This document shows, one piece after another, positions 982-46,025 of a DNA stretch of 64,000 nt. Position 1 is the stretch's first letter. Every line of letters starts with the position of its first letter. The DNA is taken from NCBI GenBank assembly GCA_050084515.1, contig CM114271.1, forward strand, positions 34,658,001 to 34,722,000, written 5' to 3'. Under the pieces are notes generated by a model, which saw only the letters and a program-made list of their open reading frames with translations, was not told the DNA's origin and searched no databases. Made by a program: the position numbers and the translations under genes. This stretch comes from Blasia pusilla. Lineage: Eukaryota.

Positions 982-2114
982 ATGGCCCCGCCCGAGGCTC
1001 GCGTAACTGGAGAATGCGAGGACTGTAGAGCGAGAGCGCAGGGCTCGGCGTCGACGCTGAGTTCCGGAATCGACGACAGGAACGGGCAGGTGAATTTCCA
1101 AGAGCTGGCTGACATAAGTGCCAAATATGAAAGGCAGAAGAAAGCCTATGAGGAAACGCAGAGAAGGCTGCGATTTCTCAAACTCCCGGACACCGATACT
1201 CTCGGCGACTGTTTCAGAGGAGATGTCACCTTCGTCGTGCACGCGACCATTCCGAGAGTCGTACATGCACACCGCTTCATCTTGGTACGTACGTGCTTGA
1301 AATCCCGAGCTAGGAAATCGACATCCTCGACGCTGTAAAGCGAACGAGGAATACGTACACCTGTGGCGCTTGGTTTCATCGACAATGGGGGTTTAGGTTG
1401 CTGTCACTAAATGAGAAACCATCAGGAGATCAATTTCGCCGAGAACTTTCCTTCGTAATCTTCAAACAGCTTTGAAAGATCATCGCCGAAAAGAATCTGA
1501 TTCTACTCAGACGTAAATTGATGACCGTCAACTCAACGCGTCGAAGTCTAAGCTCAAAGTGCAGGCAGGCGTCCAGCTAGGGAGGGTATGGAGAGAGAGA
1601 TGAGTCCTTCATTCGGCCGGATCGTCCATAGAAAAACCTAATGAACAGATTCGCGTCCTTCGCGCACAAAACTCGGAAACATTGCGTACTGAACAGGCAA
1701 TCATGTGGACTGCTCGGGATCAATTTGCAGGCATGTCGATCATCGGTGTTCCGGAGGATGTTCGAGGTCGGTATGTCAGAGGAGGAAACCGGAAGGATTC
1801 AGATCAACGACGCGTCCTATGCGACAATGCGCGCGGTTGTGAACTACTGCTACACGGCTGAAATTTCATTCAGCGACGAAGTACGTCCTGAAGAAGTTCT
1901 TAAAGTCGCACATAAATACGATATACCGATGCTCAAAGGTCTATGCGACGAGGAGCTTTGTGGGAGAATAACCCCATTGAATCTGCCAGAGATGTTGAGG
2001 CTCTCCCGAACGTACGAGGCGCGCAAACTCCATAAAGATGCCATGAACTACTTCAAGCACAATTTCGACACCGTCCAAGAAACCGTCATGGACACTCTGT
2101 TCCCTGTCAAATAA
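982..2114 (+). CDS. BTB/POZ-domain protein (At4g08455-like), 2 exons: 982-1284, 1731-2114; ~228 aa
   Basis: Exon 1 ends ...GDVTFVVH...VHAHRFIL at a GTACGT donor (1285). The acceptor TTTGCAG ends at 1730 and exon 2 continues in phase 0: ACRSSVFRRMF...IQINDASYATMRAVVNYCYT...AHKYDIPMLKGLC. This is a classic BTB fold. There is an N-terminal CxxC and a coiled coil. Confidence 0.88.
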
Positions 2115-4954
2115 AGAAATTTCATGAACGGATTCGGTAGCTGATAATTCACCGATCAAGCTGTTGATCACTCGATTTCCGGATCTCGTTCTATCCTCGC
2201 TCTCATCTGTGCGGATACTTCCTGTCAGCATGCAGAATCTAGAACACACTCATATCGCGATGAACTCGTCCAAACAGGAATCAGCAATGGACAGAAACAT
2301 CTTCCACAAAAGGTGCAGATACCCTTCTCGACTTCTCGACCTCTGCGGTTCAACTTCCTGATATCACCAAAGTCAATAGAGCCTGCAGACATTTTCTTTT
2401 CACGCGGAGAAGCGTCGGATTTATTTTCGACGACTAGAACTACAGCAACTGGACATCTACATAACGAAGCTTTGATAAAAAATTACACAACATTTCGTGC
2501 TCGGGTGACCCCTCTAGCCATTTGACGCATACATATGTCTGATTAAGTTCGAGATCTGGGAGTCATAAGTTTATCAAACAGATATTAGATGTAGATTGGG
2601 CCGTGCGCGTGACCATGATCGGCGTACTATGACCGGCAGTACCATCACATGGTTCTAATCGAACGAAGATTGAATAATTAGTGTCGGGTGGACATCACCG
2701 GATAGTACTGATCGTGAACAACGTCCGTGTCAGCGCTGCAGAGCTCAACTAGACTCATGATCTGTCTGTCGAACTATCTTGATTATCAATTATCGATGTA
2801 GCAGTTACGAACATTCGTCAGTTAATTCGACTGTTGGATGAAGCGGTTTCCGACGGTTTGAGGACGGCCTAATTCATGTACACGAATATGTCGTTCGCAC
2901 GATCCATCATGAAGATCTGTCTGGTAGTCAAACTGGGAGGATAGGCTATCGTATGGGGGGGGAGGAGTTGAAGAATGTTGTGGATTCCTTCCAGAGCGAG
3001 AGCCCAGTGTCTTATGTCACAATGCTCCATGATCATCCGAGCTTGAGCCACCTCTCGTCTTAAATTTAGCAGTTCGAACATGTGAAGCGGCCATATCTAG
3101 CGAGACCGAATCCATGGCACCGTACGTATACCCAGCTTATATGTTCCTGTTTGAACAGCAGTATGTATCTCCTCCAGTCCCTGAGACGGAAGGCCCTGAA
3201 TGATCGTACTCAAGAGCATGCCCCACTGGGAATCCTCGCATAGAATCGTTGCCTGTGGTGATCATCGCACTGCCCAATCTCCTCAATTTCATATGACGGC
3301 AACAATTCGGCCCCGAAGACCCATCGAGTGCTAAATGAGTATAGGGGTCTTCCTTAATCCTCGTCCCTTCTGATCGAGAGGGTTGTTCGCCATGAACATG
3401 GCGCAATCACGAGCCAGATCGTGCCTTCGCCACTACCACACCAAAATATGAGTCAGTCACGAGGTATCGATGTCATTGTGCGGAAGAAATTCCAAGTCTA
3501 CTACGGTAATTTGCTTTGGATCCTATCCACTTAACTGAATTGCAAAGATAGGCTAGAAATCGGAGAGTTCAAAGTTGAAACGCAGCAAGATCTGAAAAAT
3601 CCCAAGATCCGCCGATCTATACTGCCTAATCTGAGGAGATCGCTCGGAGCTGGTGGCGGGAACAAAGATCGATCTTGTTTCAAGACGATTACTAGGTGAA
3701 GTTTTTCGGACGGGTCTTTGTGACTCCGATTCGCGTGGAGAGTAGACCATCGAAACACATCGTGGCCCGCAAATCCAATCATTGCTGGTTCACTGTCACG
3801 AGCTCAAGGGTGCTCCGCCGGCGGAATGCAAGAGTGCAGCTGTGCTCAATCACATAGATAAGACGGTATTATGACCTACAAGTACGTGATCATTAGTGAG
3901 TGCCATTTTCGTTCCTGCCCTAGCGAATGCGCATGCGCGCGGAGTGGGTCTTGCTAAGCGTTTGAACATGATCTAGACGCTGAAGGCACGATCAGGCTCG
4001 TGATCGCATCTTCTTGACGTAGTCCAGGAACAGGCATTGCCAACCTCCACATGTGTGCAATGGGGTTGCAACAGCAAGGGCTAGGGTCCCCGACTGGTGC
4101 TGTAAATCCGGCGAAATCTTAGTTCCCTTGCCCTTGCGCGCGAACCGGATCGCGATCCACTTCGTGCGCAAGTCCGAAGCAAATCTGGAATCCATGCGAC
4201 CTTCGAATTTTGAAATCTTTAGATCCCTAGACATCTGCATTTAGTAGGAATGTGTTGTGCATGCATGACAGTGAGTATTGGAAAGCATATTTGAGATGCC
4301 TTGCAGCTCTCCTTGATGAGAATTAATCGAAGCACTGGATCCATGGACCCCAGGTTTGCTTTCCTTGTGTCTGTCGAAATGTAATCCATGAGATTCCAGT
4401 TTTTCGAAGAAAGTTCCACAGTACATTTGCTAATCGCCAAAGAAAGAAAACCGTTGTCTACTGAATCAGCTTGTCGACGTCAGATTCAAATGTGCACACT
4501 GCGGCGGAATCCACTCCCGACAAACCTTGACTCATGCAACCAGTCGAAGTTCAGAGATGAAGATCAGCTACTGTAAGGAATATTTTCAATGGGCAATGAA
4601 TTTCTCGTATCGATGAGAAGCCATCGTTCATTGTCTAGAGACAGTTCAGAGAGCATCCGAATCAAGCTACAGGACGCGGTGAATTTCTTGTGATGTAACT
4701 AGTTGTTCCAAGCACAAGTTCGAATAGTCATACATATAGTACGCCGTTTGAAGCTCGTCCACAGTTCCAAATTAAAGTCACGATTGAACTGAATGCAAAC
4801 TCGATTTCTTATACTTGCTTACGCGATTTGCCAGACCGCACACAATATTCACAAGTAAAGACCAGAACAATTTAGACGCGTAGTGGGACTGAATACCTAG
4901 CAGAGCTCTGCAGGCATGTGCTGCGCGTGATTAGTTCACTCCCGTGAGCGATGG

Positions 4955-6091
4955 TTAAGCGTAGGCTCCGCTGCTCAACAAGTAGGCTTCTAAACCGTGG
5001 AAGAGTTGGTCAAATCCACCCTTCGCTTGCTCAAGAATGGTTTCGGCGGCATCACCTCCCCCAGAATAATCCAGAGTGCTTAGCACTCTCACCTTGTCGG
5101 CACCCTCGGCGAAGAAGCTCACCGTGGATTGCCACTTGGTGAAGCCCGCGGCGAGATGCCCTCCTTCGATCTCCTCGGTGACCAAGGTCTTGGTTTCCTG
5201 GTTGATGCTCACGAGCCTCTCCTTCACGTAAGCGCCCTCAGGAAGAGCTGCGAAAACAACCACAACCGTCACAAAAATTGCACCACGAGCCCACCTATCG
5301 ATCGGGGCTTCAACTTCTTACGTCAAGAGAACTTTCCTGTTCAATTTCCCCAACCCCTACGGCTGTCAGCGATGGCGAGTTGGTTGAATCTGGCAGCCGC
5401 CGAGCATCGCGATGAGCTAGAGCTGCACTCAATTGATTTCTTAGGTGGCCCTCTTTGCGATTCACAGAAGTCCACGTTAATTTGCGTCGCTTGCCATTGA
5501 GAGATCTCGCAATGGTATTTGAACACCACTATAATTTAATTTCAAAAGTTTCCAGCACACGAATGTTCTTCTCTACCCAGGTTTTCATTCATACACTTCA
5601 ATGACATTTTTATTCTGACCAAGCTCAACTCTAGCATTAAATTAAATGGCGTTCTATAGCGCGACGACTTCACAATCGGTCTATGTACTTCACCATAAGA
5701 TCAGGTTTAGCTAAATGACGCTGATTACCTCCATCCAGAGTAATGACCGGTGCAACTCTGCGGATGAAAGACGCTGCGGACTCTAGCCTTCCAGATCTAG
5801 AGCTCCGTTCTTTCCCTCGGGTCCCAATTTCAGAAACTAGACCTCGGTAAAGAAGAGACAGGTGCATGACCTAACCGGTAGATGATGTGGAAGACGGGAG
5901 CGGACAGATCTTTTACCTGACCCGAACTTGATGAGACTCACGGAGCCAACCTGTCCATGCGTGCCCTGAATTATATCGATGCTTGCCATGAAGTGAGGGG
6001 CAATTTTGGGGAGGATATCTTTGGCATCCTTCAAAGCCGCCCAAATGCGGGACGCTGACACTCCCAGCACCAACTCATGTCGCAACGACAT
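4955..6091 (-). CDS. PR-10 / Bet v 1 / MLP-like (SRPBCC/START fold) protein, 2 exons: 6091-5917, 5247-4955; ~155 aa
   Basis: MSLRHELVLGVSASRIWAALKD...LPKIAPHFMASIDIIQGTHGQVGSV (Gly-rich loop). Phase-1 GT-AG intron 5916-5248. Exon 2 reads YVKERLVSIN...IEGGHL...LEAYLLSS. Length and single phase-1 intron are typical of the PR-10 family. Confidence 0.88.
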
Positions 6092-9000: not shown

Positions 9001-12000
9001 CTTCCAGTAGGATAGTGCAAGTAGAACATGACGAGGTGTATAGGTCCACAAAAGGCCAATGCTAGTTCTTTGAGGTGATTTTTGAACCCCCTAGTAACTT
9101 CATGCATGAGTTTGGTGCATGATGTGTGTGATCCACGATTCATAGCCGGTTAGCATTTACTCCTCTCATGGTGTAGACTTGGTTTTTTTGAGCACCTAGA
9201 GAGTGCTACAATAGCCGACTAAGCGGATTTCTTGGAGAAATACGTGTAAGAAAAAAACTTTGCCACCATAGACTATATGTCTCAAGAGATATCGGAGGAT
9301 TCCTAAGACTCTCCCCAATTTGGGGAGATTCTCTAGGAGGCTTATATATGCATGAGTCGCTTAATTGGAGAAACTCGAGAAGTGATCGAGCTGCAACCTA
9401 TACTATATTGGTATGGGGCACTTAACTATAAACTAGGACAATGAATTAGAGATTGTGTTTTGATTAGAATAACAAACAAGCTAACTTTGAAGAAGGTGTT
9501 TTGGGTGTCTAAGGACATTGAGCTCAAAAACATCTTAGAGCATATGGTGATGTCTAGCTTTGCGAGAGCTTGCCAAAAGCCAAAACATTGTCATGTGCAC
9601 TTTGTGTGTGGATAGGTGCGTCGCAAGACGAGGATGGCCTATGTGCGCCTATACGAGACATTGTGAGGTTTGTTCCATCCTTTGCAAGATACTCCCCTAC
9701 TTGAGTTGTTGGACCTTAATTTAGTGGTGCTCAATGAAAACTACATTATCCTAAATAACATGAGCATTTAGCACTAATGCGATTAGAAAATGGGGGGAGG
9801 GGGCCCATTCTTATAGTGTAATCACTATCAACTGTCCAGTCATATCCACAAATTATTTTTCCATCTCAACCCAGAGATGAGATTTGAAGGAGAACTAGTA
9901 TCTAGTGGTACACTGAGTGGTGGTAGGAGTCGTGGTGTGAAACCCCCAAGGCCATTATGATGACCGTGATAGATATGGGTTTTGTCCATGTGGGAGTCAT
10001 GTCCTAGTATTTGTCAAAGCTGATAGAGATGATCTATTGGATGGTAATCTTTGAGCCATAATCATCACTATAGAGGAGTAGGTGGTTTTCCTTACTCGCT
10101 TTGCATTGTCTTGCACTGCTATATTCACATCCACTTTGTGAGTCACAGAATCCATCATATAGTCCCAGTATAATTGCACTAGACTCATAACTTTGCAAGT
10201 CTTGCACTCATGATTGGACTTGTAAATTTCAATTGCACACGGCTATGAAGTTTTATTTCTTCTACACATAGTTTAGTCAAGAAAGGCTCGCAAGGTTCTT
10301 GTAAGCGCCTCACAACTTTTTTGCAGCTTTGGAGTTATTTTATAGTCTTTGCAAGTCTAAGTAGTCGGAAAAATTTATCTTAAAAGTCACTTTCAAAAAT
10401 CACGCAAAAAAGTTGTGATTTTCTGCAATAGCAAAATATTTGTTTTTTCTCCTCTTTTGCTCGATTTGGACTCATTTTTTTATCTATAACATTTTCAAGT
10501 ATGTGTTTGAGTCTCGTGAAGTTGCAAGTTGCAATGTTAGGTACAAGCACTTTGCAAGTCAATTACAATGCACACTCACAAATCTCAATGCAAGGTTTTT
10601 GCAATTCTTCTACTTCTAACAGGACTAGCAAATATGCCTAACTTGTAACTTAATCGCAATTGAATTAAAAAGTATGTGTCACATCTTAATAACCGATAGG
10701 TAGAGATCTATCGTCGCGATGGCATAGAGAGCTTGCAGACTATCTTGAGTGTAACTTCGTCTTGAGGTGTTGGATGAGGTTGAGGATAGGTCCGTTGTGT
10801 CAGGAACGTCATTTTTTTTTACTTTCCTATTTGGGTCTTTCACGGCCGGATGACTTGTTGAGCACGTTCACCCGCCCTTGGTAACTTGTGCACGTAGGTT
10901 ACCAAGCGGATCACTATTTTTAGGGGAAGAGCCTTTTGGCTTTTCCCACACCTATATAAGGGAGAGAGATGGCTTTCCCAAGCCATCTTTCTCGTGTAAA
11001 AATAAGAGTAAAAATGGCACACCCAACATAAAACTCCATCCCTCAGTCTACATCGGCATATCAAGCCTCGTCCACCCTCTCCTACCAGGGAATTCGGACG
11101 CTAGCACCTTGGTCATATCTCACACACAAACAAGAGAGATGCTCCAACGGCTCAACATGAGAAAGATGTTGGGCCTTATATAGGTGTGGCATGTTATCAT
11201 ATCAAAATCAAAAAACTTATTGAGAGTATATTGGCATTGAACTATTCATATATCACCTTCATTCTTGATAAACTCTCCAAAGAGAAAGTACTTAAGCTCT
11301 CCCAAGCCCTTTAACGAAACTCAACTTAGAGCCATCATACTATTAAGGGCGTTAGCTCACTTTGAAGACCAATGAATGAATGACACCTATAAGATTTATC
11401 CATGAAGTTTTTTTAAAATTTTATCCTATACTAAGCACAAAACAAGAATGGGTAAGGCTTTAATAATGAAGTTTAATTATTTATGTATTTATAAAAAAAT
11501 TAATTATAATTAACTCAAATTTAGACGTCTTTCCGGATTAAATCTTCTAGACTCTCTTTCATTTTTATTATCCTTTCTCATTTTAAAATTATTTTTTCAA
11601 GGTTCACACCAATGAAATTATGACAAAAATTAATTTAAAGTTTAGTTTTGAGGGAAAATTAATTTCCCTTTGGGAAAAAATGAAAAGGATATTAATAGGA
11701 CACTAATATGAAAATAATTATTCTTCAAAATAATGGAAGAAATAATATTTCTGTATTATTTTTAATTTTCAAGTTAGATTTGGAGAAAATTATGATCCCG
11801 AATTTGGGAAAAAAACTCATCAAAATAAGAGATTTTCTTTTACTTCTTAAAATATAGGGATTAGAAAAAGGATAAATGATTTTTTCAACAATAAAATAAT
11901 AAAAATATATGAAAATTTTTCTTGAGCCAAGTTAGATTTTTCTTGAGCCAAGTTAGAAAATTCTATGTTTCTTTTTTTTTCATCTTTTTTAAGATTTAAC

Positions 12001-12402
12001 TTTATTCATTATTCACTATTCAACTTTATCCACTATTCACTATTCAACACTTGCTCGTTGTTACCAATCAAAATCAAATCGTCAATTAAATGTCCCTCAA
12101 TTCTATGTGAATATTGTGAAGGATTAGAACTATAAGCTAGTCTTAAATCTAAGAAATAGAGAAATATACTTTTGTCAAGGAATGTGACCTTAAATTTTTT
12201 TCAATCAAGATTTTCGTAAATAGATTAGATTTCTTGATAAAGCAAGTATATATAGAACATCTATGAATCTAAAATTACTAATTCACATGCTAGATAATGG
12301 AAGAGTAATAAGAATTTCACCTATTTGAATGATTCAATGATGTGTATCATTTCTTATCACTAGAATTTTTGGTACTAGTGAAAGCTCCTACGATGCACAA
12401 GG

Positions 12403-12901
12403 TGTCAGGTCTTTTAGGATAGATCGGTGAGATCTAGTGGAGGACAGGCTCAGTAGGTCGAAGATGACCTGCTGAAGTCCCGAGAAACCAGAGAGAGCAG
12501 GTTTCCCCTTTGTTTCAGCTCATTTGGAGCCACATTGAGGAACTTACTATTTTAGGTAAGTACCATTATAAGTATGTGATCAACTTTCTATTTTTGGTTA
12601 GTGGCCCTTGACCTCCTACATCACGTCAAGAGCCAAGGAGGTGACTTGGGAGCATAGGTCACCATGAAGAGAGCTTGGGAGAGGGGAGGGGTATATCTCA
12701 AGGAGAGAGAGTTTGAGAGCTCATTCTCTTTTTGTTGAACCTCTTGGCATGAGGTGGTGGAGCTATGGTCTTGCTTGCCTTGTGTGTGCAACCCAAGCCT
12801 CTCATTAGGAGAATGGGTTTGGTTTGACATGGAGAGAGATATGTGAGAGTGCACACATATGAGAACTATGGTGTTGTGAGAGAAATTGGATCTTTATTTT
12901 A
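12403..12901 (+). repeat. Terminal repeat A1 of element copy 1
   Basis: Aligns by eye along its whole length to 20511-21029 and to 38890-39404. It has a ~20-bp deletion near its 5' end relative to those copies. Confidence 0.92.
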
Positions 12902-15890
12902 CAAAGAGAGAATGAGTGAGTGAGAGAGCTTCATGAGGGAGCTCGTTGGTTGCTCGATGTTTAGGGCAAGTTGGGGGACCGTGTTCCTGCTTCATGGCTC
13001 ATGGGAGTGCTCACCGGAGCAAGATCCGTGCGAGTTTGCTATTTTTCTTTGCTGATTTTTTGTACGGGATAGTGGCACGCGGAAGCGCAACCTAATTTTT
13101 TAAAGGAATTGAGTATGGGGGCGGATTACTCCATGCCGGTGCTCTCGGGAGCACCATGTAATTTTCTGATTTTTGTTGGGAAAAATCAGCGTAGAAGCGC
13201 TCCCAAATTTTGTGTAGGAGAACGAGACATTGGGCTTTACGACTGTCCCCGTCAATTTTTAATAGAATGTTCGATTCAAAATATTTTCACACCGTCGTAG
13301 ATCGTGAAGCTGTGCAATAAACGGTGCGCAATTTGGAGTTGCGAGCAAAAAGTTATGATCAATCTTGCCATTACTAGGCGATTTTTTGGGTTAAAAACCC
13401 TAAGCCAGCCGCCGCGCCGATGGCGGCCATCGCCGTCATACTCACCTTCAACAGTCTGCCATCAATGGTCAACCATCACCGTCAAAGGTCAACCGTCATT
13501 ATCAATGGTCCACCGTCCACCGCCCACCGTCGGCCACCGCCTAGCGCTGCATAGAGCCGCGTTCGGCCGTTGTCCACCCTTGGTTGCCATTGCCGCCATT
13601 ACGGAATGGAGGGTCTTCCACGACCACCATTGATTCTTTGACTTGCGCCACCACCATGTACTTTGGTTTGGCTGCCACCGTCATCGCAGTTTCGTCATCA
13701 ACTAGTGATGGCAGGCGACCTCGGGTTATAGTGTTTGAGTTTTTATTTCATGTTGCTATGTTGTGATTGGTAGCCGCTCGACGACGATCGAGTACTGTGT
13801 CGTGATGCCCGTAGCCGCAATGCGCCGCCGATTGCCGCGATGTGTCGCTTGTGGCCGCACTGCACCGTCTCGATCGCGGAGCCGCTCCTTCACTAAGGAG
13901 CAGAGCGTGTGAATTTCTGATTGAGGAGGGTATGTCGCTGAGTGCCGCACCCCATTCCCGAGTTCCGTGTCGTTTGTAGCCATTCCGTGTGGCCAGTGCC
14001 GCACCGGACCGCCGAACGTGCACCCCACATCGAGGAGGTTTGAGCAGCGTCAGTACGAGAGGAGTACGACTTGCTGATTGGAGGAGTTGTCTTCATGACC
14101 GAGTTGGGGTCGAGATTTGCAGTTTCCGAGAAACAACATTGACATTATTTTCAGGTTACCCATTCTGGTCTCTTACCCTGCACGTGTGAGGGATTTTCGG
14201 GTATTGGGAAGTTATTTGGGATATTGGGTTTCGTGTTGATGCTAGGAGCATCGATGATGTATGGTTTTAGGGGACATAGAACTGTGTGGGATGTCCAGAG
14301 TTGAGGATGGTTTGTCGATGAGACAATAGACCAGTTGATTTGCCGCACCACGATGCTTGTTGCCGCACAACACACGTCTTAGTGAGAGAGTGTAGATTGA
14401 GTGCCGCATGTTTAGTCTGAGTGATTGAGGGATTACTCGCAAGATTGAGAGTGATCATGTGAGAGGCACGAGGGCCATCATAGCGTCCTTTCAGGATTTT
14501 GAGAGGCGAGGTAGTGGACCTGAGAGTAGCTCTGGAGGGTTTACCAGGAATGGTATGAGGTTTCTAGGGTCTCCATGAGAGAGACCACCTCGATCTCCTT
14601 CTGTGTCATCTTCAAACGAGGGGGAGCATGTAGAGGAGTGTGTTAGTGATCCACCCTACACATTGAGTGGTCCTACCAGTTGGGCGTACGAGATGGACGA
14701 CATGGATAGAGGACCGCGTAGGTTTTCGGGTGCTGTAGGCACCATAGAGCTACAGCGAGTGCGACGATTCCTATTGTTGATGCTTATGAGGGGCATGTAT
14801 CGAGCATGTTGTTGGGGGCGGCCACCATTGTGTACCATGCTCCTTTATTTTCTGCTTCCGATGTTATGACATTGAGAGGTACGCCCACCGAGGTTTTTTG
14901 ACTGGCCGCTACGCTATGTGAGCGTGGAGTTGGAATTCCTGCATCACGTTCAGAGGTGATTGCAGAGGAGGTGATGGACTTGCCCTTGGAGCAGAAGCTC
15001 GGGCCGTCCACGTTAGATTTATGGCAAGTTGTGGCTACTAAGATGGCGGAGATGCCCGCTAGACCCGCGATAAAGCGTGCCATGGCTTCCCCTGGTGTTT
15101 TGTTGCTGGATAACCGGGGAGAGGTCTTTCAGTTGGTGAGTCCCAGAGGTAGAGCTTTTAGTCCACAACGTGTCTTGTTGGATTCAGGAGCGCAACCCCT
15201 AATGTTGGGGAAAGCGTCATTTAGAGGATTGGGCTTGGCGAGAGCCAATGTGGAGCATTGTCCATTTCGGATACAGACATCCTTGGGTGGATCGAGTACC
15301 ACAGAGTATATCACCCGATAGGAGATCGTGGTGAGGATTCGCCCGGGACATCCTACAGATGAGTCCATGGTGCGAGCCAAGGGGATAGTGACTGATGCAG
15401 AGTCCTACAACGTCTTGGTTGGTGGAGCAGTGTTATACCTGATGGGGTTTTCCCTGGATTACTGGGAGGATTCAACGTCCTAGAGACCAGGATGGCAGTC
15501 AGGTGATAGGCGCCTTAGCTCATTACCTGTTCGATTCACAGGTGCAGTGATCGAGCGACGGCCAGGAGAGATGGCGACCTTAGCAGCTTTAGAAGTGCCA
15601 TCACTTGGCCTAGTGATTTGATTGAGGGACATGTCCATGTAGAGGATACTCTTGTTCCTGACATTTCTATGGAGAGGAGTGTCATGGTAGCCGCATTAGT
15701 CCGTGGAGGAGAGGTGCCGCTTTGGGGCTCGACTGAGGAGCTTCGACGCTTAGCCACTGAGCATGTGCAGACCGCGTGGAGCGAGACGTTTGCATCAGAG
15801 TGTAACGGGTCAGAGGAACCTTAGGTAGGCAAGAGTGATGCTATGAGCCCTTTGGACACAACCGCGATTGTGTGGTGCATTCCAGAGGAG

Positions 15891-16830
15891 GGTATTCGGA
15901 TGTTGGATCTCTTTGGAGGGATCAACATTGGGTTAGCTGTTGTTTTGCACATTGGAATGTGCGTGCAACAATACCTGTATGTGGAGATTGATGATGTTGC
16001 GAGGCACACTTCACTTCACCATCTGGCGCTGTTCCGCCTCCATTTTCCCAACTTATTGTCTGCGTCCGCCATTCATGGTTACCAGAGTTCCCTATCGAGG
16101 GACATTTCATTGTTGGGGGAGCAAGACTTGGAGCGGATAGGGACCATAGACTTGCTCATTGCTGGTTGGCCATGTTAGGGCCAATCGAGTGTTGGACGAG
16201 GAAGCGGGTTAGCTGACACTCGGTCCAGGTTCTTTTGGGAGATGATGCAGATCTTGCAACATTTACAAGAGCATCAGCCTCGTTCTCCATCATACATTTT
16301 GGAGAATGTGCCAATTTTGGGTGATCCGAGGTCCCGCGTGGTGACGAGTGCACATCAGGTGCGGATTGGCCCGGCAGTGTTGTTAGATGCGGCAAGTGTA
16401 GGTTCTAGAGCACATCGCCCGCATCTTTGGTGGACCAACTTGATACGACATGAGGTGTTGCGGAGGGCTTATGCGAGAGTAGAGCGTCCCTCCGATTTGT
16501 TGGTGGATTCTATATTGGATCCGGGCCGTCGATCACAGGCAGTGAGACATGATGATCGACCGCCGTTGACTGTGATCAACACGATTGGCATGCCATGAGC
16601 AACCTTTCCCACATTGGTGACTTTTCCCGCTTCCTATGCATTCAAGGAGGCCGGACCTGGCTTGGTTTGGGATGACCACATACATAGGTTGGTGGAGCCC
16701 AATGCCGATGAGCGAGAGCGAGCAATGGGATTCCCCACAAGAGTGACGGCAGTATCGTCACTATCAGAGGCATCATGACGTTATATCTTGGATCAGGCGA
16801 TGGACCTTAACTGCTTGATATGGATTTTCA
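15891..16830 (+). pseudogene. DNMT3-like C5 cytosine DNA methyltransferase domain within the retroelement polyprotein (copy 1)
   Basis: All in one frame with stops. Motif I IRMLDLFGGINIG; II YVEID; IV IDLLIAGWPC(*=Q)GQS; FFWEMMQIL; VI YILENV; VIII LDAASVGSRAHRPHLWWTNL; IX ERERAMGFP; X RYILDQAM. Confidence 0.9.
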
Positions 16831-17239
16831 GCTTAGGAGTAGTTGAGCAACGTCATTTGAGGATGCAACAGATCACAAAATTTGTGTTGGTGAGCCCCAT
16901 TCCTACCGAGACGGTTGAGGCAATGGCTGGGGGCGAGACCCGAGGACATCGACACACCAGGGGTGATCGGGAAGAGACACCCTGGGACTTCTTGGGATTT
17001 TTTGCAGGTACGCAAGGAGATGATAGCCACAACATTGAGCGTGGTTCTGGGTACTACACGTGGAGATGAGAGTTCTATTTTCCGAGACGGGGTAGCACCA
17101 TAGCAACCACAGACATCTGCGCCGAAGAGTCCTACCGTAGTCACAATATGGAAGACTTGGGAGCCAGATATGGGCCCTAAGTTGACAGGAGGAGAGTGGC
17201 GTCAGATACACCAATTCCTTAGGAGTTATAGGAGTTGTT

Positions 17240-20200
17240 TTGCATTTAGTATGCATGATTTGGGTACGCTGAAGGGTCCAGGGATCCGCATTGAGTTGTC
17301 AAGTGACACGCCAATCTTCTGACAATCCTTCAGGTACAATGACATGGAGAGGGCTCTGATTTAGAGTAGGAGCCAAGACTTGGTTGGAGCAAGACTTGTG
17401 GAGATGTCACATGGAGAGTATGCATTTGCCACTATCATGCCCGGCAAGAAGGATGTGCATTGCAACTAGACGGATGGGCGGATGTGTGGAGATTACCAAC
17501 CTATCAATCGGCATACGAAGTTCGATAGGTATGCCATGCCCACCCTTTGATGCAATTGGGCAGCAAAGGACTTCAGTTCATTGGATTTGCGAGCCGGATA
17601 CCATCAGATGTCTATCTGATTGGTGGACAGGCAGAAGGCGGAATTTTGGGGCATCGATCCTCACGGGAAGGATTGTTTGTACCAGTGGCGGTTCTTACCA
17701 TTCAGGTTAAAGAACGCCCCGGCTGAGTTTCAGAGGGTCATGGATAGGATGTTGGCAGGTTTGGATTTTGCTTGGTATTTTATTGATGACATCGTAGTAT
17801 TTAGCGCCACAATTGAGGAGCATGAGCAACATCTAGAGGAGGTGTTTCGACGATTGCAGTTACATGGGTTGAAGCTACATCTAGGAAAGTGCAAGTTCTT
17901 CTACGGCTAGATTGCATATGATATACCTTGGGGGCCTTGGTATGCAATTAACGAAGGTAGAGGCTATTTCACGCATTCCACGTCCTACAGATGTGAGTCG
18001 AGTTCGTGCATTCATGGGATTGCCAAACTTCTATCGACGGTATGTCAAGGGTTTCAGTTCAATTGCGAAGCGGCTAACCTTGATGACCAAGGTGGATCAG
18101 GAGTGGCACTGGTAGAATCAGCAAGTAAGAGCATTTCAGATGCTCAAGGACATATTGATGTCCGCGTCTATATTGAGGAGACCGATCAGGGGGCGTCTTT
18201 TCCAGTTGCATACCGATTGGAGCATGTTGGGGCTTGGAGCCGTGCTCACCCAGCATGAAGATGATGGCAGAGAGTTTGTGGTGGCTTACGCTAGTCGCTC
18301 GAACAACGCTGCAGAGGTGAAGTATAGGTCATATGAGGGTGAGTGCTTGGCTGCAGTGTGGGCTGTCGCACATTTTAGATGTTATCTATTCGGCAATCCC
18401 TTTACCATCATTACTAATCATCAGCCACTTAAGTGGTTGATGGAGTCCGACAAGCTTACAGGGAAGTGTGCGAGGTGGGCTCTTTTGTTGCAGGAGTATG
18501 ACTTCCAAGTGGTGCATAGACCTCGGACGCTCAACCAGGATGGAGATGGTTTGAGTTGTAGCCCATGCCAGAGTCAGCGAGATGCGACTGGAGCTCGTTG
18601 GCATGATGAGAGTGATGAGGAGTTGGTGCGAGGATGGCATGCCTTAGCCTATTTGGGCTTGTTGGCTATGGAGAGCCAAATTGCTAAGACTTCGATGGCG
18701 AGGTCTGATGGAGAGTCCTTAGATCTAGAGGCCGGTGAGGAGACGACAGGTGGCCAAGACATTCACGACGATGGAGTGGTCTTGGAGTACTTGCGTATTG
18801 GCAGCGTCGCGAGCACATTGGGTGCTAGAGAGCGGGATTGGATCCTACAGCGAGCCAGATGGTTCCGGTGGGAGGGCACATATGTGTTGCGAGTATGGGA
18901 GGATAGTAGAGTGTGTGTAGTGCCTCATCCTTTGCAGAGAGCACGTTTGGTGCGTCATGCCTACAAGGAGTTGGATCATTTTGGAGTGAAGCGGACGTAC
19001 AACTTGCTCCTAATTCAGTACTAGTGGCAAGGCATGCAGACTGACATTCAACAGTATGTTGCCAGATGCATGGTGTGTGATCGAGTTCGAGCATCATTCA
19101 ATGCTCCGACTCTAGAATTGCATCCACTTCCGATCATGGGCTTAGGTTATAGATGGAGTTTGGATTTTGCAAGTTCTTTGCCTTTGACGGAGCGCCATAG
19201 TCGTTATGTGTTGGTGATGGTCGAACACTTCTTAAAGTGGATAGAGTTATTTGCATTGCCTGACAAAGCGAGTGAGGGAGTAGCGTATGCCTTCCTAGAT
19301 GGAGTGTTGAGTCATTACGGTGCACCAGCTGAGGTGTTGACACACCAGGGTACAGAGTTCCGTGGGGAGTTTCAAGCCTTGTGTGATTAGGCACTAATCG
19401 ACCACTGCACTACTTTGAGAGATCATCCTGAGGCAGATGGACTAGCGGAGCGGGTTGTGCACACAGTGAAGAGAGGACTGCGTAAGTATGGCTTGCAGAG
19501 AGGTCATCTAGGAGATTGGGACCTTCAGTTGCCGTGGTTGGCGATGGGATACAGATTCAGCAGTCATGCGTCCTTAGCGTCTTTCTCACCGTATTTTTTG
19601 CTTTATGGCCGAGAGCCACATTTACCTACGGCCATTCGTTGAGATGTTGGTGAGGTGTTGAAACTTTATGACCTTGATGTATGGATGCGAGCATGTTCTC
19701 AGAGGGCTATGTTGTTTTGGAGAGTGATGCCCATGGCGTTTGAGAACTTGGCGATTGCGCAACATCGGGATACGTTGAGGTATGCGACTATTCGGGGAGA
19801 TGGTTATCGACCTACTATCCGGAGGTTTCATTAGGAAGACTATGTCTACTTGCATTAGACGGCACCCACGACTTTAGATGTGACTGTAGGACGCACAATC
19901 TTGAGAGTGCGTGAGGTTTTTCCATCCGGTGTTCTCTTATTGGAGGGACGCAATGGTATGGTTTGGAAGGACCATGTGCGTAAGTATGCGCCATATCATC
20001 TTCCGAACATTGACAGTATAGTTGATTTGAGCTTAGCAATAGTTTCTGCAGGCTTGCGGTGTATATTGTGTGGTTCTGCCCGTTGTGCAGCCACTATGCT
20101 GGTCTGTGATGGATATTGGAGAGGATGGCATATGGCATGTTTGACGCCACCTCTCACTAAGGTTCCTCAGGGATGATGGATGTGTCCCAGATGTACATAG
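17240..20200 (+). pseudogene. RT-RNase H-integrase-PHD portion of pol (copy 1), disrupted
   Basis: ORF fragments 17620-17910 (RT), 18140-19024 (RNase H, INT zinc-binding), 19034-19642 (INT core) and 19880-20176 (PHD). Domain order RT-RH-INT is the Gypsy order. Confidence 0.92.
20060..20194 (+). other. PHD finger at the integrase C-terminus
   Basis: CILCGSARCAATMLVCDG(Y<C)WRGWHMACLTPPLTKVPQG(*)WMCPRC matches the Cys4-His-Cys3 PHD consensus. Confidence 0.88.
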
Positions 20201-20380
20201 AGTAGGTAGTTCTACATTCCGACTTGTATCTGTGATATGGATGACAAGAAGGCAACTAACAATGGGGCCACATGAGCACCTGGCCTTCTTGCTCTTAGCG
20301 TCCGAGAGATGTATGTCATGGTAGGTAGGGATAGATGGCTATCTGGAGTTAGAGGGACCTAACCACTAGCTAAGGGGGCG

Positions 20381-20508
20381 ATTGGAGATATTTTGGTACT
20401 TCTCGTCTCGTTTTTTGGATGCCATGAGTTAGCATGGGATCGTGCGTGTTTGTGTGTGTGTTTGGTGACAGCGATGTATATTGTGTAGCGATGTGTATGC
20501 ACACGATA
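20381..20508 (+). repeat. Repeat B1 (128 bp), preceded by a polypurine-tract-like AAGGGGG (20372-20378)
   Basis: ATTGGAGATATTTTGGTACTTC...GTGTATGCACACGATA aligns to 21029-21156. Confidence 0.9.
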
Positions 20509-20510
20509 AC

Positions 20511-21029
20511 TGTCACGTCTTTTAGGATAGATCGGTGAGATCTAGTAGAGCGCCTTAATGAGTAGTTGAGGACAGGCTTAGTAGGTTGAGGATGACCTAC
20601 TGAGGCCCCGGGAAACTTGAGAGAACAGGTTTCCCCTTCGTTTTGGCTCATTTGGAGCCATATTGAGGAACTTACTATTTTAGGTAAGAACCACTTTGAG
20701 TATATGATCGACTTTATATTTTTGGTAAGTGTCCCTTGACCTCCTACATCACGTCAAGAGCCAAGGAGGTGACTTGTGAGCATAGGTTACCATGGAAAGA
20801 GCTTGGGAGAGGGGAGGGACATACCTCAAGGAGAGAGAGCTTGAGAGCTCATTCTCTTTTTTTTGAACCTCTTGGCATGAGACGGCGGAGCTATGGTCTT
20901 GATTGCCTTGTGCGTGTAACCCAAGCCTCTCATTAGGAGAGTGGGTTTGGTTTGACATTGAGAGAGACACGTGAGAGTGCACACATGTGAGAACTATGGT
21001 GTTGTGAGAGAGATTGGATCTTTATTTTA
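20511..21029 (+). repeat. Repeat A2
   Basis: TGTCACGTCTTTTAGGATAGATCGG...GGATCTTTATTTTA is a direct repeat of 12403-12901. Confidence 0.92.
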
Positions 21030-21156
21030 TTGGAAATATTTTGGCACTTCTTGTCTCGTTGTTTGGATGCCATGAGTTAGTATGGGATCGTGCGTGTTTG
21101 TATGTGTGTTCGGTGACAGCGATGTATGTTGTGTAGCGATGTGTATGCGCACGACA
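21029..21156 (+). repeat. Terminal repeat B2 (128 bp)
   Basis: ATTGGAAATATTTTGGCACTTC...GTGTATGCGCACGACA is a direct repeat of B1 and is followed by the AAGG TSD. Confidence 0.9.
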
Positions 21157-21599
21157 AAGGAAATTCATATTAATGACAACCTTTGACATGTAATTACCCT
21201 GTGACTTATGGCTTAACGAATCCCCAAAACTCTTAATTGACCTTAAAAATTCCGATCAATTTTGAAGAATCTTATTGGCTGAAAGATTAAGCAATGTTAT
21301 TAGCTAAGAGGGCCAATTGTCAAAAGCCAAAAGGAGAGATGCTCGGAAATCAAATGGGCACTCTCCAATAATAATACAAATTATCAATGGTTTCATATTC
21401 ACAAAACTTTCTTCATAAGAAATCATGTGATTTACACTTGTAAATTGATATACTTATATCACTAATGGTACTTGGGCTCTCAACTCTATGATATTTCCCA
21501 TGATATAACTCATAGCCAACCCATTCTCATCACTATAGTAATAATCCACATAATTTCATTGTGAAAGAACTTCACGTCTTATGCCTTGAAGTAATCCTT

Positions 21600-30960: not shown

Positions 30961-31465
30961 ATTGAGAGCTCATTCTCTCTTTGTTGAATCCTCTCACCAT
31001 GAGAGTGATTTTGGTTTAGAGAGAAAGACCATGGCGACAACGTCAACTGCCCATTACGCTGACTTGATAGACAATCGTCATTGACCACGTCTGTTCTCAT
31101 CGACCTTGGCTGGCCATATCTACTCGGCTATCGCGCACACTGTATACTGAAGGCTTGCCACAAACAATTCAACCCCACATATATACTTGCCCATCCACAC
31201 CTTGCAGCCATCTTTGTAGCTTGCTACAATGCCACCCAACCCGCCAGGCGCCACTTCCCACTCACTGACAAGCAAGTTCTACACATACATCTGCCCTACT
31301 TCCATCCATTGTCTACTCAGCCTTAGCCTATTTTGTTCAATTGGAGATATTCTGGTAACAACTCCCCTCTATGTTTGTGATTGGTAGATGATTGAGTCAG
31401 TCTAGTGTTTGTGTGTTTGATTAGTGACATCAATGTACATTAGGTAGCAATGTGTATGCACACGA
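30961..31465 (+). mobile_element. Diverged remnant related to the A/B repeats of the methyltransferase retroelement
   Basis: 30961-31000 (TTGAGAGCTCATTCTCTCTTTGTTGAA) resembles part of A. 31340-31465 (ATTGGAGATATTCTGG...GTAGCAATGTGTATGCACACGA) resembles B. Confidence 0.6.
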
Positions 31466-38889: not shown

Positions 38890-41800
38890 TGTCACGTCTT
38901 TTAGGATAGATCGATGAGATTTCGTAGAGCGTCTTTGCGAGTAGTGGAGGACACGCTTAGGAGGTTGAGGATGACTTGCTGAGGCCCCAGGAAATGTAAG
39001 AGAGCATGTTTCCCATTCGTTTCGGCTCATTTGGAGCCATATTGAGGAACTTAATATTTTAGGTAAGTATCATTTTGAGTATATGGTTAAATTTGTATTT
39101 TTGGTAAGTTTACCTTGACCTCCTACATCAGGTCAAGAGCCAAGGAGGTGACTTGGGAGCATAGGTTACCATGGAGAGAGCTTGGGAGAGGGGAGGGGTA
39201 TACCTCAAGGAGAGAGAGCTTGAGACCTCATTCTCTCTTTGTTGAACCTCTTGGCACGAGGCGACGAAACCATGGTCCCTTGTCTTGTGAGTGTAACCCA
39301 AGCCTCTCATTTGGAGAGTGGGTTTGGTTTGACATGGAGAGAGATATGTGAGAGTGCACACATTTGAGAGCTATGGTGTTTGAGAGAGATTGGATCTAGA
39401 TTTACAAAGAGAGAATGAGATGAGTGAGAGAGCTTCATGGGGGAGCTTGCTAGTCATTCGCTGGTTTTGTAGGTTGGGGATTGTATTTCCCATTTAACGG
39501 TTCATGGGAGTGCTCACCGAAGCCGGAGCCGGAGCCGGAGCCGCTCATTTTTTATGTTTCCTTTGCCGATTTTTCGTGTGGAAGAATGGCGCGTAGAAGC
39601 GCTGCCAAATTTTTGATAGGGATTGAGTATGGGTGCGAATTTCTCCATGTTGGTGCTCTCAAGAGCACCATGTAGCTTATTGATTTGTGTTTTCACAGGT
39701 TTTACAATTTTGTTGGGCGAAATCAGCGCGGAAGCGCTGCCAAATTTTGTGTAGGAGAAAGAGACATTGGGCTTTACGACAATCCCCTTCAGTTTTTACT
39801 GGAATGTCCGATTCAAAATATGTTTTGATATTGTTGTAGATTGTGAAGTTGTGCAGGCTGTGCAATAGACGGTGTGCAATTTGGAGTTGCAAGGAAAAAG
39901 TTGTGGTCATTCTTGCAAAACTGCCATTGCTAGGCGATTTTTAGGGTTAAATTGTTCAAACCCTAAACCAGCCGCCGCGCCGGCGTCGACTGTCGCCGTC
40001 ATAATCACTGTCAATGATCCACCATCAATGGTCAACCATTGCCATTGACGGTCAACCATCACCATCAACGGTCAACCGTCACCGTCAACGGTTCACCGTC
40101 CACCATCGGTCGCCGCCGCCGCCTACTACTTCTCAGATCCGCATTCGGCCGTTGTCCACCCTTGGTTGCCATTGCCACCATTGCGGAGTGGAGGGTCTTC
40201 CAAGATGACCGTTGATTTTCTGACTTGCGCCGCCACCACGTACTTTGTTTTGGCCGCCATCGTCATCATAGTTTCGTCATCAACCAGTGATGGCAGGTGA
40301 CCTCGGGTTATGGTGTTTGAGTTTTCATTTCACGCTGCTATGTTGTGATTGGTAGCCGCTCGATGATGATCAAGTACCATGCCGTGACACCCGTACCCGC
40401 AACGCGCCGCCGATTGCCGTGCCGTGTCGCTCGTGGCCGCACCGCACTGTCTCGATCGCGGGGCCGCTCCTTCACTAAGGAGCACAGCGTGGGAATTTCT
40501 GATTGAGTACGGTATGCCGCCGAGTGCCGCACCCCATTTTATCGAGTGCCATGCCGTTCTGTAGCCGTTTTGTGCCGCCAGTGCCGCACCGTACCGCTGG
40601 ATCCGCACCGCACATTGAGGAGGTTTGAGCAACGTCAGTATAAGAGGAGTACAACTTGCTGATTGGAGGAGTTGTCTTCACGACCAAGTTGGGGTCGAGA
40701 TTTTCAGTTACCGAGGAGCGACATTGACATTATTGTCAGGTCATCCATTCTGGTCTCTTACCCTGCACGTCTGAGGGATTTTCGGGTATTGGGAAGTTAT
40801 TTGGGTTATTGGGTTTCGTGTTGATGTTGAGAGCATCGATGATGTATGAGTTTAGGGGACATAGACCTATGTGGGATGTCCAGAATTGAGGATGGTTTGT
40901 CGATGAGATTATATATCAGTTGATTTTCTGCACCACGCCGCTTGTTGCCGCACAGCACTCGTCTCAGTGAGAGGGTGTAGCTTGAGTGCCGCATGCTAGA
41001 TTGAGTGATTGCGTGATTACTCGCGAGGTTGAGAATGATCGTGTGAGGGGGGCACGCGGGTCATCATGGCATCCTTTCAGGACTTTGAGAGGCGAGGTGG
41101 TTGACCAAAGAGTAGCTCTAGAGGGTTTACGCAGAGTGGCCTGAGGTTTGGAGGGTCTCCACGTGCGGGACCTCCTCGACCTCCTTCTGTGTCATCTTCA
41201 GACGAGGAGGAGGGCGTAGAGGAGTTGAGTAGTGCTTTGCCACTCACATTGAGTAATCCTACTCCTTGGGCATACAAGATGGACAATTGGGGTAGAGGAC
41301 CACGTAGGTTCTCACGTGCAGTAGGCATGATAGAGTTACACGACTTCATTGCGGAGTTTAGGAGTTGGTGCGACTCACAGCGGGCTAGGAACTCTAGAGA
41401 GTTCAACCTGTTTACAACATGGAACAATATGTTCCAATATTTAGAGGGGGCACCCATGGACGATTACCATGAGTTCTCCCACAGATATGCCCAAGAGATT
41501 GAGGCATGGCGACTCTACTATGACCCATATTATGTGTCATGGACGGAGCCGTTCCCAAATGAGGAGGAGGATTCAGGAGAGGCTACTTCCTCTTCCATTA
41601 GTGATGTTTTAGGAAGGGTAACTCGCATTGGAGCAATTGCTCCATCCAGTTGGGTTCGTCCTAAGTTTAACCTCGTGGTTGAGTTCTTTGTTGGGTTGAG
41701 GGCGAGCTAGCAGGAGGTACGGACGGAGAAGTTGCGGAGTATCCATGACTTCTAGAGGCGCTCGGGTGAGAGTTTGCACGAGGCTTACACTCGCTTGCGC

Positions 41801-44800: not shown

Positions 44801-46025
44801 GAGGTTGGTGGAGCCCAACGCCGATGAGCGAGAGCGAGCGATGGGATTCCCCACAGGAGTGACGACAATACAGTCACTATCAAAGGCATCTTGACGTCAT
44901 GTCTTCGGTCAGGCGATGGACCAGAATTGCTTGATGTGGATTTTCAGCTTAGGAGTAGCTGAGCAATGTTGTTTGAGGATGCAACAGATCACAGCATTTG
45001 CGTTGGTGAGCCCCATGCCTACCGATTGAGACAGTTGAGGCAATGGTTGGGGGCGAGACCTAAGGAGATTGACACACCAAGGATGATTGGGAGAGACACC
45101 CTTGGACTTCTTGGGATGTTTTGCAGGTACGTTAGAAGATGGTAGCCACAACATCGAGCGTGGTTCCGGGTACTCCAAATGGAGATCCGATTTTGTAGTT
45201 GGCTGTAGGGGAGCAATCGAGTTTTGTTGTTCGAGACGGGGTTGCACCATAGCAACCACCGACACCCGCGCTGTTATAGGAGCTATTTTGCATTTAGTAT
45301 GCATGATCTGGGTACGCTAAAGGGTCCAGGGATCCGCATTGAATTGTCGAGTGACACGCCGATCTTCCGACGATCCTATAGGTACAGTGACATGGAGAGG
45401 GCTTTGATTCAGAGTAGGAGCCAACACTTGGTTGGAGTAGGACTAGTGGAGATGTCGCATGGAGAGTATGCCACTGTCATGCCCGCCAAGAAGGATGTGC
45501 ATGGCAACTAGACGGATAAGTGGATGTGTGGAGATTATTGACCTATCAATTGGTAGACGAAGTCCGATAGGTATGCCATGCCCACCCCTGAGGATATCTT
45601 TAATGCTATTGGGCATGCAAAGGTTTTCAGTTTGTTGGATCTTCGAGCCGTATACCATCAACTGCCCATCAGATTGGAGGACGGGCAGAAGACGGCATTT
45701 TGGGGCATCGATCCTCACGGGAAAGATTGTTTGTACGAATGGTGGTTCTTACCATTTTTGGGTTAAAGAATGCCCCGGATGAGTTTCAGCATAAGATCTT
45801 GGCAAAGGGTCATGGATAGGATCTTGGCAGGTCTAGATTTTGCTAGGTGTTATATTGATGACATCGTAGTCTTTAGCGCCATGGTTGAGGAGCATGAGCA
45901 GTATCTAGAGGAGGTGTTTCGATGATTGCAGTTTCATGGACTAAAGCTACATCCAAGCAAGTGCAAGTTTTTCTACGACCAGATTGAGTACTTAGGTCAT
46001 ACGATATACCCAGAGGGCCTTGGGT
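38890..46025 (+). mobile_element. Ty3/Gypsy-type methyltransferase retroelement, copy 2 (3'-truncated within RT)
   Basis: Starts TGTCACG, with repeat A at 38890-39404 and the same leader as copy 1. Gag at 41189-42560 includes a degenerate zinc knuckle, (C>Y)DYCQRYGHTRAKC, at ~42270-42310. PR VLLDSGA, MTase 44000-44950, RT YIDD at 45851-45862. Homology stops at ~46025. Confidence 0.9.
44000..44950 (+). pseudogene. DNMT3-like C5 methyltransferase domain (copy 2)
   Basis: IRVLDLFGGINTGLAVVLQARVGVQQFLYVEID; YILENV; LDAAIVGSRAHRPRLWWTNL; ERERAMGFPTG; RHVFGQAM. The PC motif region is degraded by indels. Confidence 0.88.

Follow-up and report, generated by a model that had tools for sequence, protein, structure and literature searches.

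How does an element that carries a DDE integrase come to be inserted with its terminal repeats split, and with ends that lie inside the repeat it would be expected to reverse-transcribe? On the usual view, the cDNA integrated by LTR retrotransposons and retroviruses is linear and ends at the ends of its long terminal repeats (LTRs), and circular forms are regarded as dead ends. The question is raised by an insertion in a 64,000-nucleotide (nt) stretch of Blasia pusilla DNA (assembly GCA_050084515.1, contig CM114271.1, positions 34,658,001 to 34,722,000 of the forward strand), here called the window; positions below are counted from its first letter. The insertion has the coding domains of a Gypsy element, and its two direct repeats, A and B, are arranged as A1-internal region-B1-A2-B2 (A-int-B-A-B). 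The split layout suggests that integrase cleaves the DNA of the element within the LTR. From the anatomy of the copies, we consider the chances even that this form arises from a joined LTR-LTR junction intermediate, which integrase cuts at the internal B/NN/A junction, NN being a 2-nt spacer. That the whole DDE-integrase lineage replicates through an obligatory LTR-LTR junction, with the integrase site inside the reverse-transcribed LTR, is a more tentative proposal, to which we give somewhat less than an even chance.

The layout was checked with a repeat finder, by BLAST of the window against itself and by direct reading of the sequence. A1 and A2 are 87% identical over 519 aligned columns, and B1 and B2 are 93% identical. 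The first bases, read directly, are TGTCAGG in A1 and TGTCACG in A2; the final bases are CACGATA in B1 and CACGACA in B2. A2 passes into B2 without a gap, and base 21029 can be assigned to either. The whole unit has TG..CA ends and is bracketed by a 4-bp target-site duplication (TSD), AAGG on both sides. A purine/G tract, AAGGGGGCG, lies directly 5' of B1. No purine tract is present 5' of A2, where the bases are the end of B1 and are not purine-rich. A preliminary description of this DNA had given coordinates for the repeats, the spacer AC, the ends and the TSD, and had placed a polypurine tract (PPT) before B1 and not before A; all of these were located as described. A chance origin of the repeats is excluded by their length, their identity and their recurrence at other loci. 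A second copy in the window opens with TGTCACG in a flank unrelated to that of the first, and likewise has A alone before the shared internal sequence, so that the A-only 5' end claimed for both window copies is confirmed. This copy carries an insert of about 1.5 kb (41340-42868); its homology to the first ends near 46023 and its 3' end is missing, hence not readable. A perfect 21-bp tandem duplication (11915-11956) lies just 5' of the first copy.

The internal region of the first copy is riddled with stops. Its domains follow the order protease, DNMT3-like cytosine methyltransferase, reverse transcriptase (RT), RNase H, DDE integrase and PHD finger, the methyltransferase being an extra domain 5' of the RT. 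The protease-like region has no Pfam match; the aspartic protease families PF13650 and PF13975 are present in intact relatives. The methyltransferase has DNMT3A and DNMT3B as its closest solved relatives (E 4e-10) and is 43% identical to the DNMT part of an intact relative, P0003. It shows the motifs FGG, PC(stop)G, ENV and RERAMGFP, and a TAG stop (16176-16178) falls inside the catalytic PCQ motif. The domain is found also in the second window copy, in the metagenome locus L075 and in many protein relatives. The preliminary description mentioned neither the DNMT3-like nor the PHD domain. For the integrase, the rve family (PF00665) matches with E 5.9e-7 and 30.1 bits, which in this decayed copy is below the cut-off of 32.6, and the H2C2 zinc finger (PF17921) with E 2e-4; both are present in nearly all protein relatives listed. 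The tyrosine recombinase family PF00589 has no match in the open reading frames (ORFs) of the window on both strands or in those of L075, and is present in 0 of 120 sets of precomputed domains of the protein relatives listed. The rve match bears out the earlier claim of a DDE integrase, and the absence of PF00589 from these three sources fits with it.

The order DNMT-RT-RNase H-integrase recurs in the ORFs of L075, and the set of protease, DNMT, RT, RNase H, rve and PHD in many of the 120 relatives listed. The best protein identity to a database relative is 47%, and Closterium is the sole named source among the matches listed. Two domain orders occur in the relatives (P0002-P0121), with DNMT either before RT, as in the window, or as part of extra sequence between RNase H and integrase; matches of the window-like order cover 98-99% of the RNase H-integrase query and those of the alternative order about 62%. 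Judged by its sequence, the element is classed as an old, degenerate Ty3/gypsy insertion of the streptophyte 'Gypsy-DNMT3' kind. It is a fresh member of a kind already in print from Klebsormidium, to which it is assigned by its domains and by the published description.

To look for other copies of such elements, metagenome contigs were scanned once against an aligned set of relatives, which gave 80 loci. Two of them, L065 and L075, belong to one family and are complete elements of the form A1..B1-NN-A2-B2. Their ends, TGTCATG..CACGACA, are nearly the terminal words of the window element, and the remaining A and B sequence is unrelated to it. A third locus, L071, is close to the window family and reads from the PPT into B1 (..ACGACA), then AC, TGTCATG.. 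and B2 (..ATGACA), then flank. The 3' ends were grouped by flank for independence, and two loci that end inside B (L046 and L062) were left out of the count. With the window copy included, there are 11 independent readable 3' ends. Seven have B-NN-A-B (window, L071, L052/75, L054/61, L060, L064/65/70 and L069/72), three stop at B1 (L050/58, L053 and L059) and one has B-A followed by something else (L076/77). All four readable 5' ends, namely the two window copies (W1 and W2), L065 and L075, have A only. The spacer between B and A is 2 nt long at every junction seen (AC, GC or AT). A 4-bp TSD is present in 3/3 complete elements, being exact in the window (AAGG/AAGG) and matching at 3/4 positions in both L065 (GCAT/ACAT) and L075 (ATTA/ACTA). 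L001, L003, L004, L007, L019, L020, L028, L029 and others have no interpretable terminal repeats, or tandem repeats only, L020 resembling LTR-int-LTR-int. The layout is therefore on record for no more than three families. None of the 80 loci comes from the closest intact relatives (P0002-P0020), and a scan of viral contigs gave one distant, uninformative locus (L081).

Reads of the host species were compared with positions 12300-21300 of the window at a likeness of at least 80%; they came from three RNA runs and from about 1% of the reads of one DNA run. In this 1-in-100 sample of DNA, each orientation covers the internal region to a depth of about 1000-1900, and the host therefore contains thousands of copies of the family. 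Most reads derive from other copies, because their likeness to the window copy is below 90%. The best-supported heterogeneous loose ends of DNA reads lie exactly at the start of A (20511; 1262 reads, consensus agreement 0.33) and exactly at the end of B (21156; 2346 reads, agreement 0.39). Joints link the end of A to the internal region (151 reads) and to the start of B (79, 73 and 24 reads). The family is transcribed mainly in the sense orientation in the three RNA runs. RNA reads that pass the end of B run into GC followed by TGTCATG.. (agreement 0.76-0.81), which is the B/NN/A junction of an expressed subfamily. The DNA reads differ from the window copy at 3714 places, of which 2111 are C>T or G>A, the pattern expected from deamination of methylated cytosines in other copies. 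A joint from 20326 to 20821 leaves out 494 nt, its ends lying just 5' of the PPT and in the TATA region of A2; it is present in 22 RNA reads over the three runs and in 0 DNA reads, and could be a spliced or template-switched transcript.

The window by itself holds a single complete copy, the second having no 3' end, and such a locus might be a misassembly or a one-off rearrangement, in which a canonical element gained A2B2 at its 3' end as a tandem solo LTR or by local duplication. We regard this as very improbable. The same layout recurs with distinct flanks in two other metagenome-contig families and in Klebsormidium, the host reads contain A/B junctions and thousands of ends at the start of A and the end of B, and the TSD brackets the whole A-int-B-A-B unit. 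The repeats are not collapsed duplicates either, as B1 and B2 differ by 7% and A1 and A2 by 13%. A one-off origin is thus contradicted by recurrence, host reads, TSD and repeat divergence. The A-int-B-A-B layout belongs to the family and is not a rearrangement; its generality is upheld by the counts of 7/11 for 3' ends and 4/4 for 5' ends, by the distinct flanks and by the ends and joints in host reads.

The priming signals indicate which repeat is reverse-transcribed. In 4/4 5' ends, the bases directly 3' of A are complementary to a segment within A. The exact complement is 10 nt in W1, longer with G:U pairs; 16 nt in W2 (39227-39242 with 39404-39419); 15 nt in L065; and 11 nt in L075. Among 2000 shuffles of the bases after A, 25 reached this for W1, 0 for W2, 0 for L065 and 1 for L075, and in 100 internal 30-nt windows used as a comparison the longest complement was 8 nt in some elements and 9 nt in others. 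The paired sequences differ entirely between the two families, so the pairing covaries. The segment within A lies 28-32 nt below a TATA box in both families (TATAAAA about 32 nt upstream in L065 and L075), and the first bases of the predicted leader RNA pair with the site after A in both the minimum free energy and the centroid folds. A primer-binding site (PBS) of the tRNA type was not seen by eye after A1, and a self-priming site fits instead. The site after A is inferred to have the self-priming geometry of Tf1, the transcript start being predicted. At the other end of the internal region, B1 is directly preceded by a G-run in each of the three families (window, L065/L075 and L071).

With the PPT at B1 and the self-priming PBS after A, U3 would start at B and U5 would end at the end of A, and the reverse-transcribed LTR would therefore be B+NN+A. 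The A2/B2 junction is, base for base, the end of U5 plus the start of U3, with ..TTTATTTT followed by ATTGG.. in the window and ..TTCAAT followed by ATACATG.. in L075. Two further claims of the preliminary description, that the reverse-transcribed LTR is B+A and that A2/B2 has the sequence of an LTR end set against an LTR start, are supported by the PPT at B1 in three families, by the covarying PBS and by the exact junctions in the window and L075. The insertion ends (start of A and end of B) carry the conserved inverted words TGTC..GACA, which lie inside the B+A LTR. The reverse-transcribed LTR B+A is out of register with the insertion ends. Priming signals and insertion ends lie one B segment apart, across several families and thousands of copies. 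An intermediate with joined ends must be productive, or else reverse transcription includes an unknown step.

The register would not be shifted if the canonical LTR were A+B, the 5' LTR having lost its B and B1 being an unrelated extra copy. The A2B2 unit has TG..CA ends with the short inverted repeat TGTC..GACA, and a diverged A'B' unit stands alone elsewhere in the window; a solo AB is, however, also a product of recombination between A1 and A2 in an A-int-B-A-B element. None of the four independent 5' ends has B, the PBS-like site adjoins A and not B, A2 lacks a preceding purine tract, and an asymmetric deletion is not heritable through reverse transcription. Contradicted by the A-only 5' ends, an A+B LTR with a deleted 5' B is extremely improbable.

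Relative to the expected cDNA, BA-int-BA, the integrated copy is circularly permuted, and it has a conserved CA-NN-TG of fixed 2-nt spacing. Our proposal, which fits the data and whose joining and cutting steps are those of the preliminary description, is as follows. Transcription would start within A1, and the 5' end of the RNA would prime minus-strand synthesis in the manner of Tf1. Plus-strand synthesis would start at B1, and the primary cDNA would be BA-int-BA, with B+NN+A as its LTR. The ends of this cDNA would join, either in a 2-LTR circle or in some equivalent form with tandem LTRs, giving the A2/B2 junction. Integrase would then nick both strands of the internal junction between the end of B, NN and the start of A, in each case just 3' of CA; with the 2-nt spacer, the two ends left would be ordinary 3'-processed ones with 5' overhangs of 2 nt, and these would insert with a 4-bp stagger. 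A single staggered cut at CA-NN-TG would free both ends, and the provirus would therefore be a circular permutation of the cDNA. Cutting the junction upstream of the internal region would give A-int-B-A-B. Expected by-products are A-int-B (from a one-LTR circle or two cuts), solo AB and A-B-A-int-B. A speculative benefit is that B follows only A2, so B2 could give signals for 3'-end formation to the 3' copy alone. Cleavage of LTR-LTR junctions by integrase has been reported for foamy virus (PMC1180852) and, in vitro, for HIV-1 integrase (PMC1905944), as far as the parts of these papers considered here describe it.

Several observations weigh against a joined-junction intermediate. No circular or BA-int-BA form was observed. 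The other B/A junction of a 2-LTR circle predicts A-B-A-int-B, and 0/4 5' ends are of this kind; the test is a weak one, because W2 alone of the four has an unknown 3' end. An element present in thousands of copies would not usually be expected to rely on end-joining by the host. The three 3' ends that stop at B1 pass from B1 (..GACA) straight into unique flank. Their 5' ends lie off the contigs; the insertions may be A-int-B forms, isomers of the type A-B-A-int-B or recombinants between B1 and B2, and recombination between B1 and B2 accounts equally well for such B-only 3' ends. L076/77 has int-B-A followed by neither B nor a PBS-like site. In L077, at 3210-5156 (the same as L076), a second N-terminal segment of pol begins about 750 nt further on and is 90% identical to 717-1135; two elements, in tandem or rearranged, may be present here. 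Only the six best-supported places of loose DNA ends are known, and ends at the start of B or the end of A could be present below about 976 reads. The listing of RNA ends gave one place, 17488, which is outside the repeats, and mapped no start or poly(A) site. The A/B junction is largely uniform in host DNA reads (61/71 shown). The junction model can absorb the 3' ends that are not B-A-B as products of one-LTR circles, of the other junction or of rearrangement. The A'B' unit and the B-only 3' ends are compatible with its by-products, and ordinary recombination between repeats explains them too.

The uniformity of the A/B junction is equally compatible with precise joining and with templated copying, as in a DIRS/PAT-like route combined with a DDE integrase. 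In this route a full-length RNA would run from the start in A1 into B2, and the missing ends of the cDNA would be completed on the internal B1-A2 junction, a step proposed for tyrosine-recombinase elements with split direct repeats; a molecule from the start of A to the end of B would be delivered to integrase directly, with no need for an end-joined LTR-LTR junction. The repeat layout matches that described for DIRS-type elements (PMC5890265, legends of Figs. 1e and 4c), the near-uniform junction looks as if copied from a parent, and five RNA reads over the three runs cross from the end of A to the start of B. However, four of these five are flagged with the first mate on the plus strand, which is the minority orientation, whereas the reads over the junction of A with the internal region are sense in 7/7 cases. 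The PPT at B1 and the self-priming PBS at A1 are strong-stop signals of the LTR type, which predict BA LTRs and have no role in the DIRS model. The right end B2, moreover, could not be derived from such an RNA by the known steps of reverse transcriptase. We consider the templated route quite unlikely.

Some other, undescribed pathway of reverse transcription or integration might also make A-int-B-A-B. For example, a read-through RNA tail with B2 could serve as plus-strand primer, a further step adding B at the right end. Placed on the minus-strand B1, such a tail would start DNA synthesis at AC plus the start of A, which would match the left end and the 2-nt spacer. No known step gives B2 at the right end, however, and the coincidence of the 5' edge of B with the PPT is left unexplained. 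An undescribed pathway is, in our view, unlikely, if a little less so than the templated route.

In the literature on split layouts in integrase-bearing elements, supplements and subscription journals apart, de Mendoza 2018 is the sole relevant report found, and no paper found discusses a mechanism. The combination of a DIRS-like layout with Gypsy domains is itself already in print, as stated in a figure legend (PMC5890265). The shift in register between priming and insertion, the self-priming site, the fixed 2-nt junction and any mechanism appear to be unpublished. Neumann et al. (2019; PMC6317226), in the part of their large survey of plant LTR elements considered here, use neither the word methyltransferase nor PHD. 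If the joined-junction reading is true, the element would be a natural case of the long-abandoned model of the circle junction as attachment (att) site, and a convergent route to the DIRS repeat layout. The anatomy makes it testable whether a joined-LTR junction can be a productive substrate of integrase. There are practical consequences as well. Programs that look for a pair of whole LTRs will overlook the Gypsy-DNMT3 lineage or misplace its boundaries, which is relevant to annotating genomes rich in the family; in the host, the family is a major transcribed component of the genome. The findings are relevant, too, to the interplay of a DNMT3-carrying element with host methylation.

The features are listed in the table below. 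The diverged A'B' unit has A then B in a solo-like arrangement, and neither its 5' boundary nor a TSD could be fixed. Elsewhere in the window are a PIF1-like helicase (Helitron-like), Copia RT and gag regions and a BTB/POZ ORF.

Table. Positions of the repeats, signals and coding domains of the element, and of other features of the window
Feature	Position	Strand	Remarks
BTB/POZ ORF	1632-2114		
Left TSD copy, AAGG	12399-12402	+	Same as 21157-21160
A1, 5' terminal repeat	12403-12901	+	Read as 3' part of U3, R and U5
TATA-like box	12692-12697	+	28 nt 5' of the primer-like segment; read directly
Predicted transcript start and self-primer segment	12720-12735	+	Complementary to the PBS-like site
PBS-like site, ACAAAGAGAGAATGAG	12901-12916	+	Directly 3' of A1; putative Tf1-type self-priming
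Protease-like region	14902-15480	+	DSGA motif by eye, from translation
DNMT3-like C5 cytosine methyltransferase	15825-16775	+	PF00145, E 2.8e-10; broken by stops
Reverse transcriptase	17104-17907	+	PF00078, E 2.2e-17, on 17620-17907
RNase H	18116-18500	+	PF17917, E 3.8e-34
Integrase, H2C2 zinc finger and DDE core	19025-19639	+	PF00665 and PF17921; degenerate
PHD finger	20060-20164	+	PF00628, E 1.4e-4; common to most relatives listed
Polypurine/G tract, AAGGGGGCG	20372-20380	+	Putative plus-strand primer site
B1	20381-20508	+	Read as 5' part of U3
2-nt spacer, AC	20509-20510	+	From end of B (..CA) to start of A (TG..); putative internal integrase site
A2	20511-21029	+	Repeat comparison
B2	21029-21156	+	Repeat comparison
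Right TSD copy, AAGG	21157-21160	+	
Diverged A'..B' unit	30962-31465	+	5' boundary uncertain, possibly 30299
Second copy, 5' part	38890-46023	+	A, PBS-like site and internal region through DNMT
PIF1-like helicase	51188-52126		
Copia RT	59317-60498	-	
Copia gag	62069-62761		

The closest published counterpart is KnitGypsy-Dnmt3 of Klebsormidium nitens, which has a DIRS repeat structure with Gypsy domains (de Mendoza et al. 2018, PMC5890265, legend of Fig. 4c). According to its published description, it shares with the window element a Gypsy polyprotein with a DNMT3-like domain and DIRS-like repeats in the order A-coding-B-A-B. Both have hosts of the streptophyte type, and the sole named source among the relatives listed is Closterium. 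The window element differs in its host, which has an AT-rich genome, rich in transposable elements, with thousands of copies. The passages of the Klebsormidium paper considered here contain no TSD, no PBS or PPT analysis and no mechanism (PMC5890265). A 2026 preprint (bioRxiv 10.64898/2026.05.21.726589) names 'streptophytes (Gypsy-DNMT3)' without discussing the repeats.

As compared to Ty3/gypsy elements (Metaviridae), the window element has the order protease-RT-RNase H-integrase, the rve and H2C2 domains, TG..CA ends and a TSD within the usual 4-5 bp; in place of two complete LTRs it has A only at the 5' end and B-NN-A-B at the 3' end. That arrangement is the one of the DIRS order (PAT-like, Ngaro and SymbioDIRS-Dnmt3), with split direct repeats A1-coding-B1 A2 B2. 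Elements of the DIRS order integrate by a tyrosine recombinase and are not known to leave a TSD. The window element, in contrast, has a DDE integrase, no PF00589 found, TG..CA ends and a 4-bp TSD. Some split-repeat elements of the DIRS order also carry methyltransferases, as the parts of de Mendoza et al. considered here report (PMC5890265).

In Tf1/sushi elements, the PBS pairs with the first bases of the element's own transcript and not with a tRNA, and the same has been predicted for the plant elements Tcn1 and TAR in the part of the survey considered here (PMC6317226). The window element resembles Tf1/sushi and the plant Tcn1 clade in its putative self-priming geometry, for which complementarity, TATA spacing and covariation are seen and the transcript start is predicted. 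These elements have two whole LTRs and a chromodomain, whereas in the window element the repeats are split and both a DNMT and a PHD finger are present. The likeness to retroviruses lies in the junction. As in the retroviral 2-LTR circle, so far as the partial accounts considered here go, CA..TG would form an internal substrate for integrase that would regenerate integration-competent ends. The retroviral LTR-LTR junction, which is palindromic, arises only by the joining of linear cDNA ends and is a side path. In the window element, unlike in retroviruses, CA-NN-TG is part of each LTR made by reverse transcription, and integrase would have to use this site.

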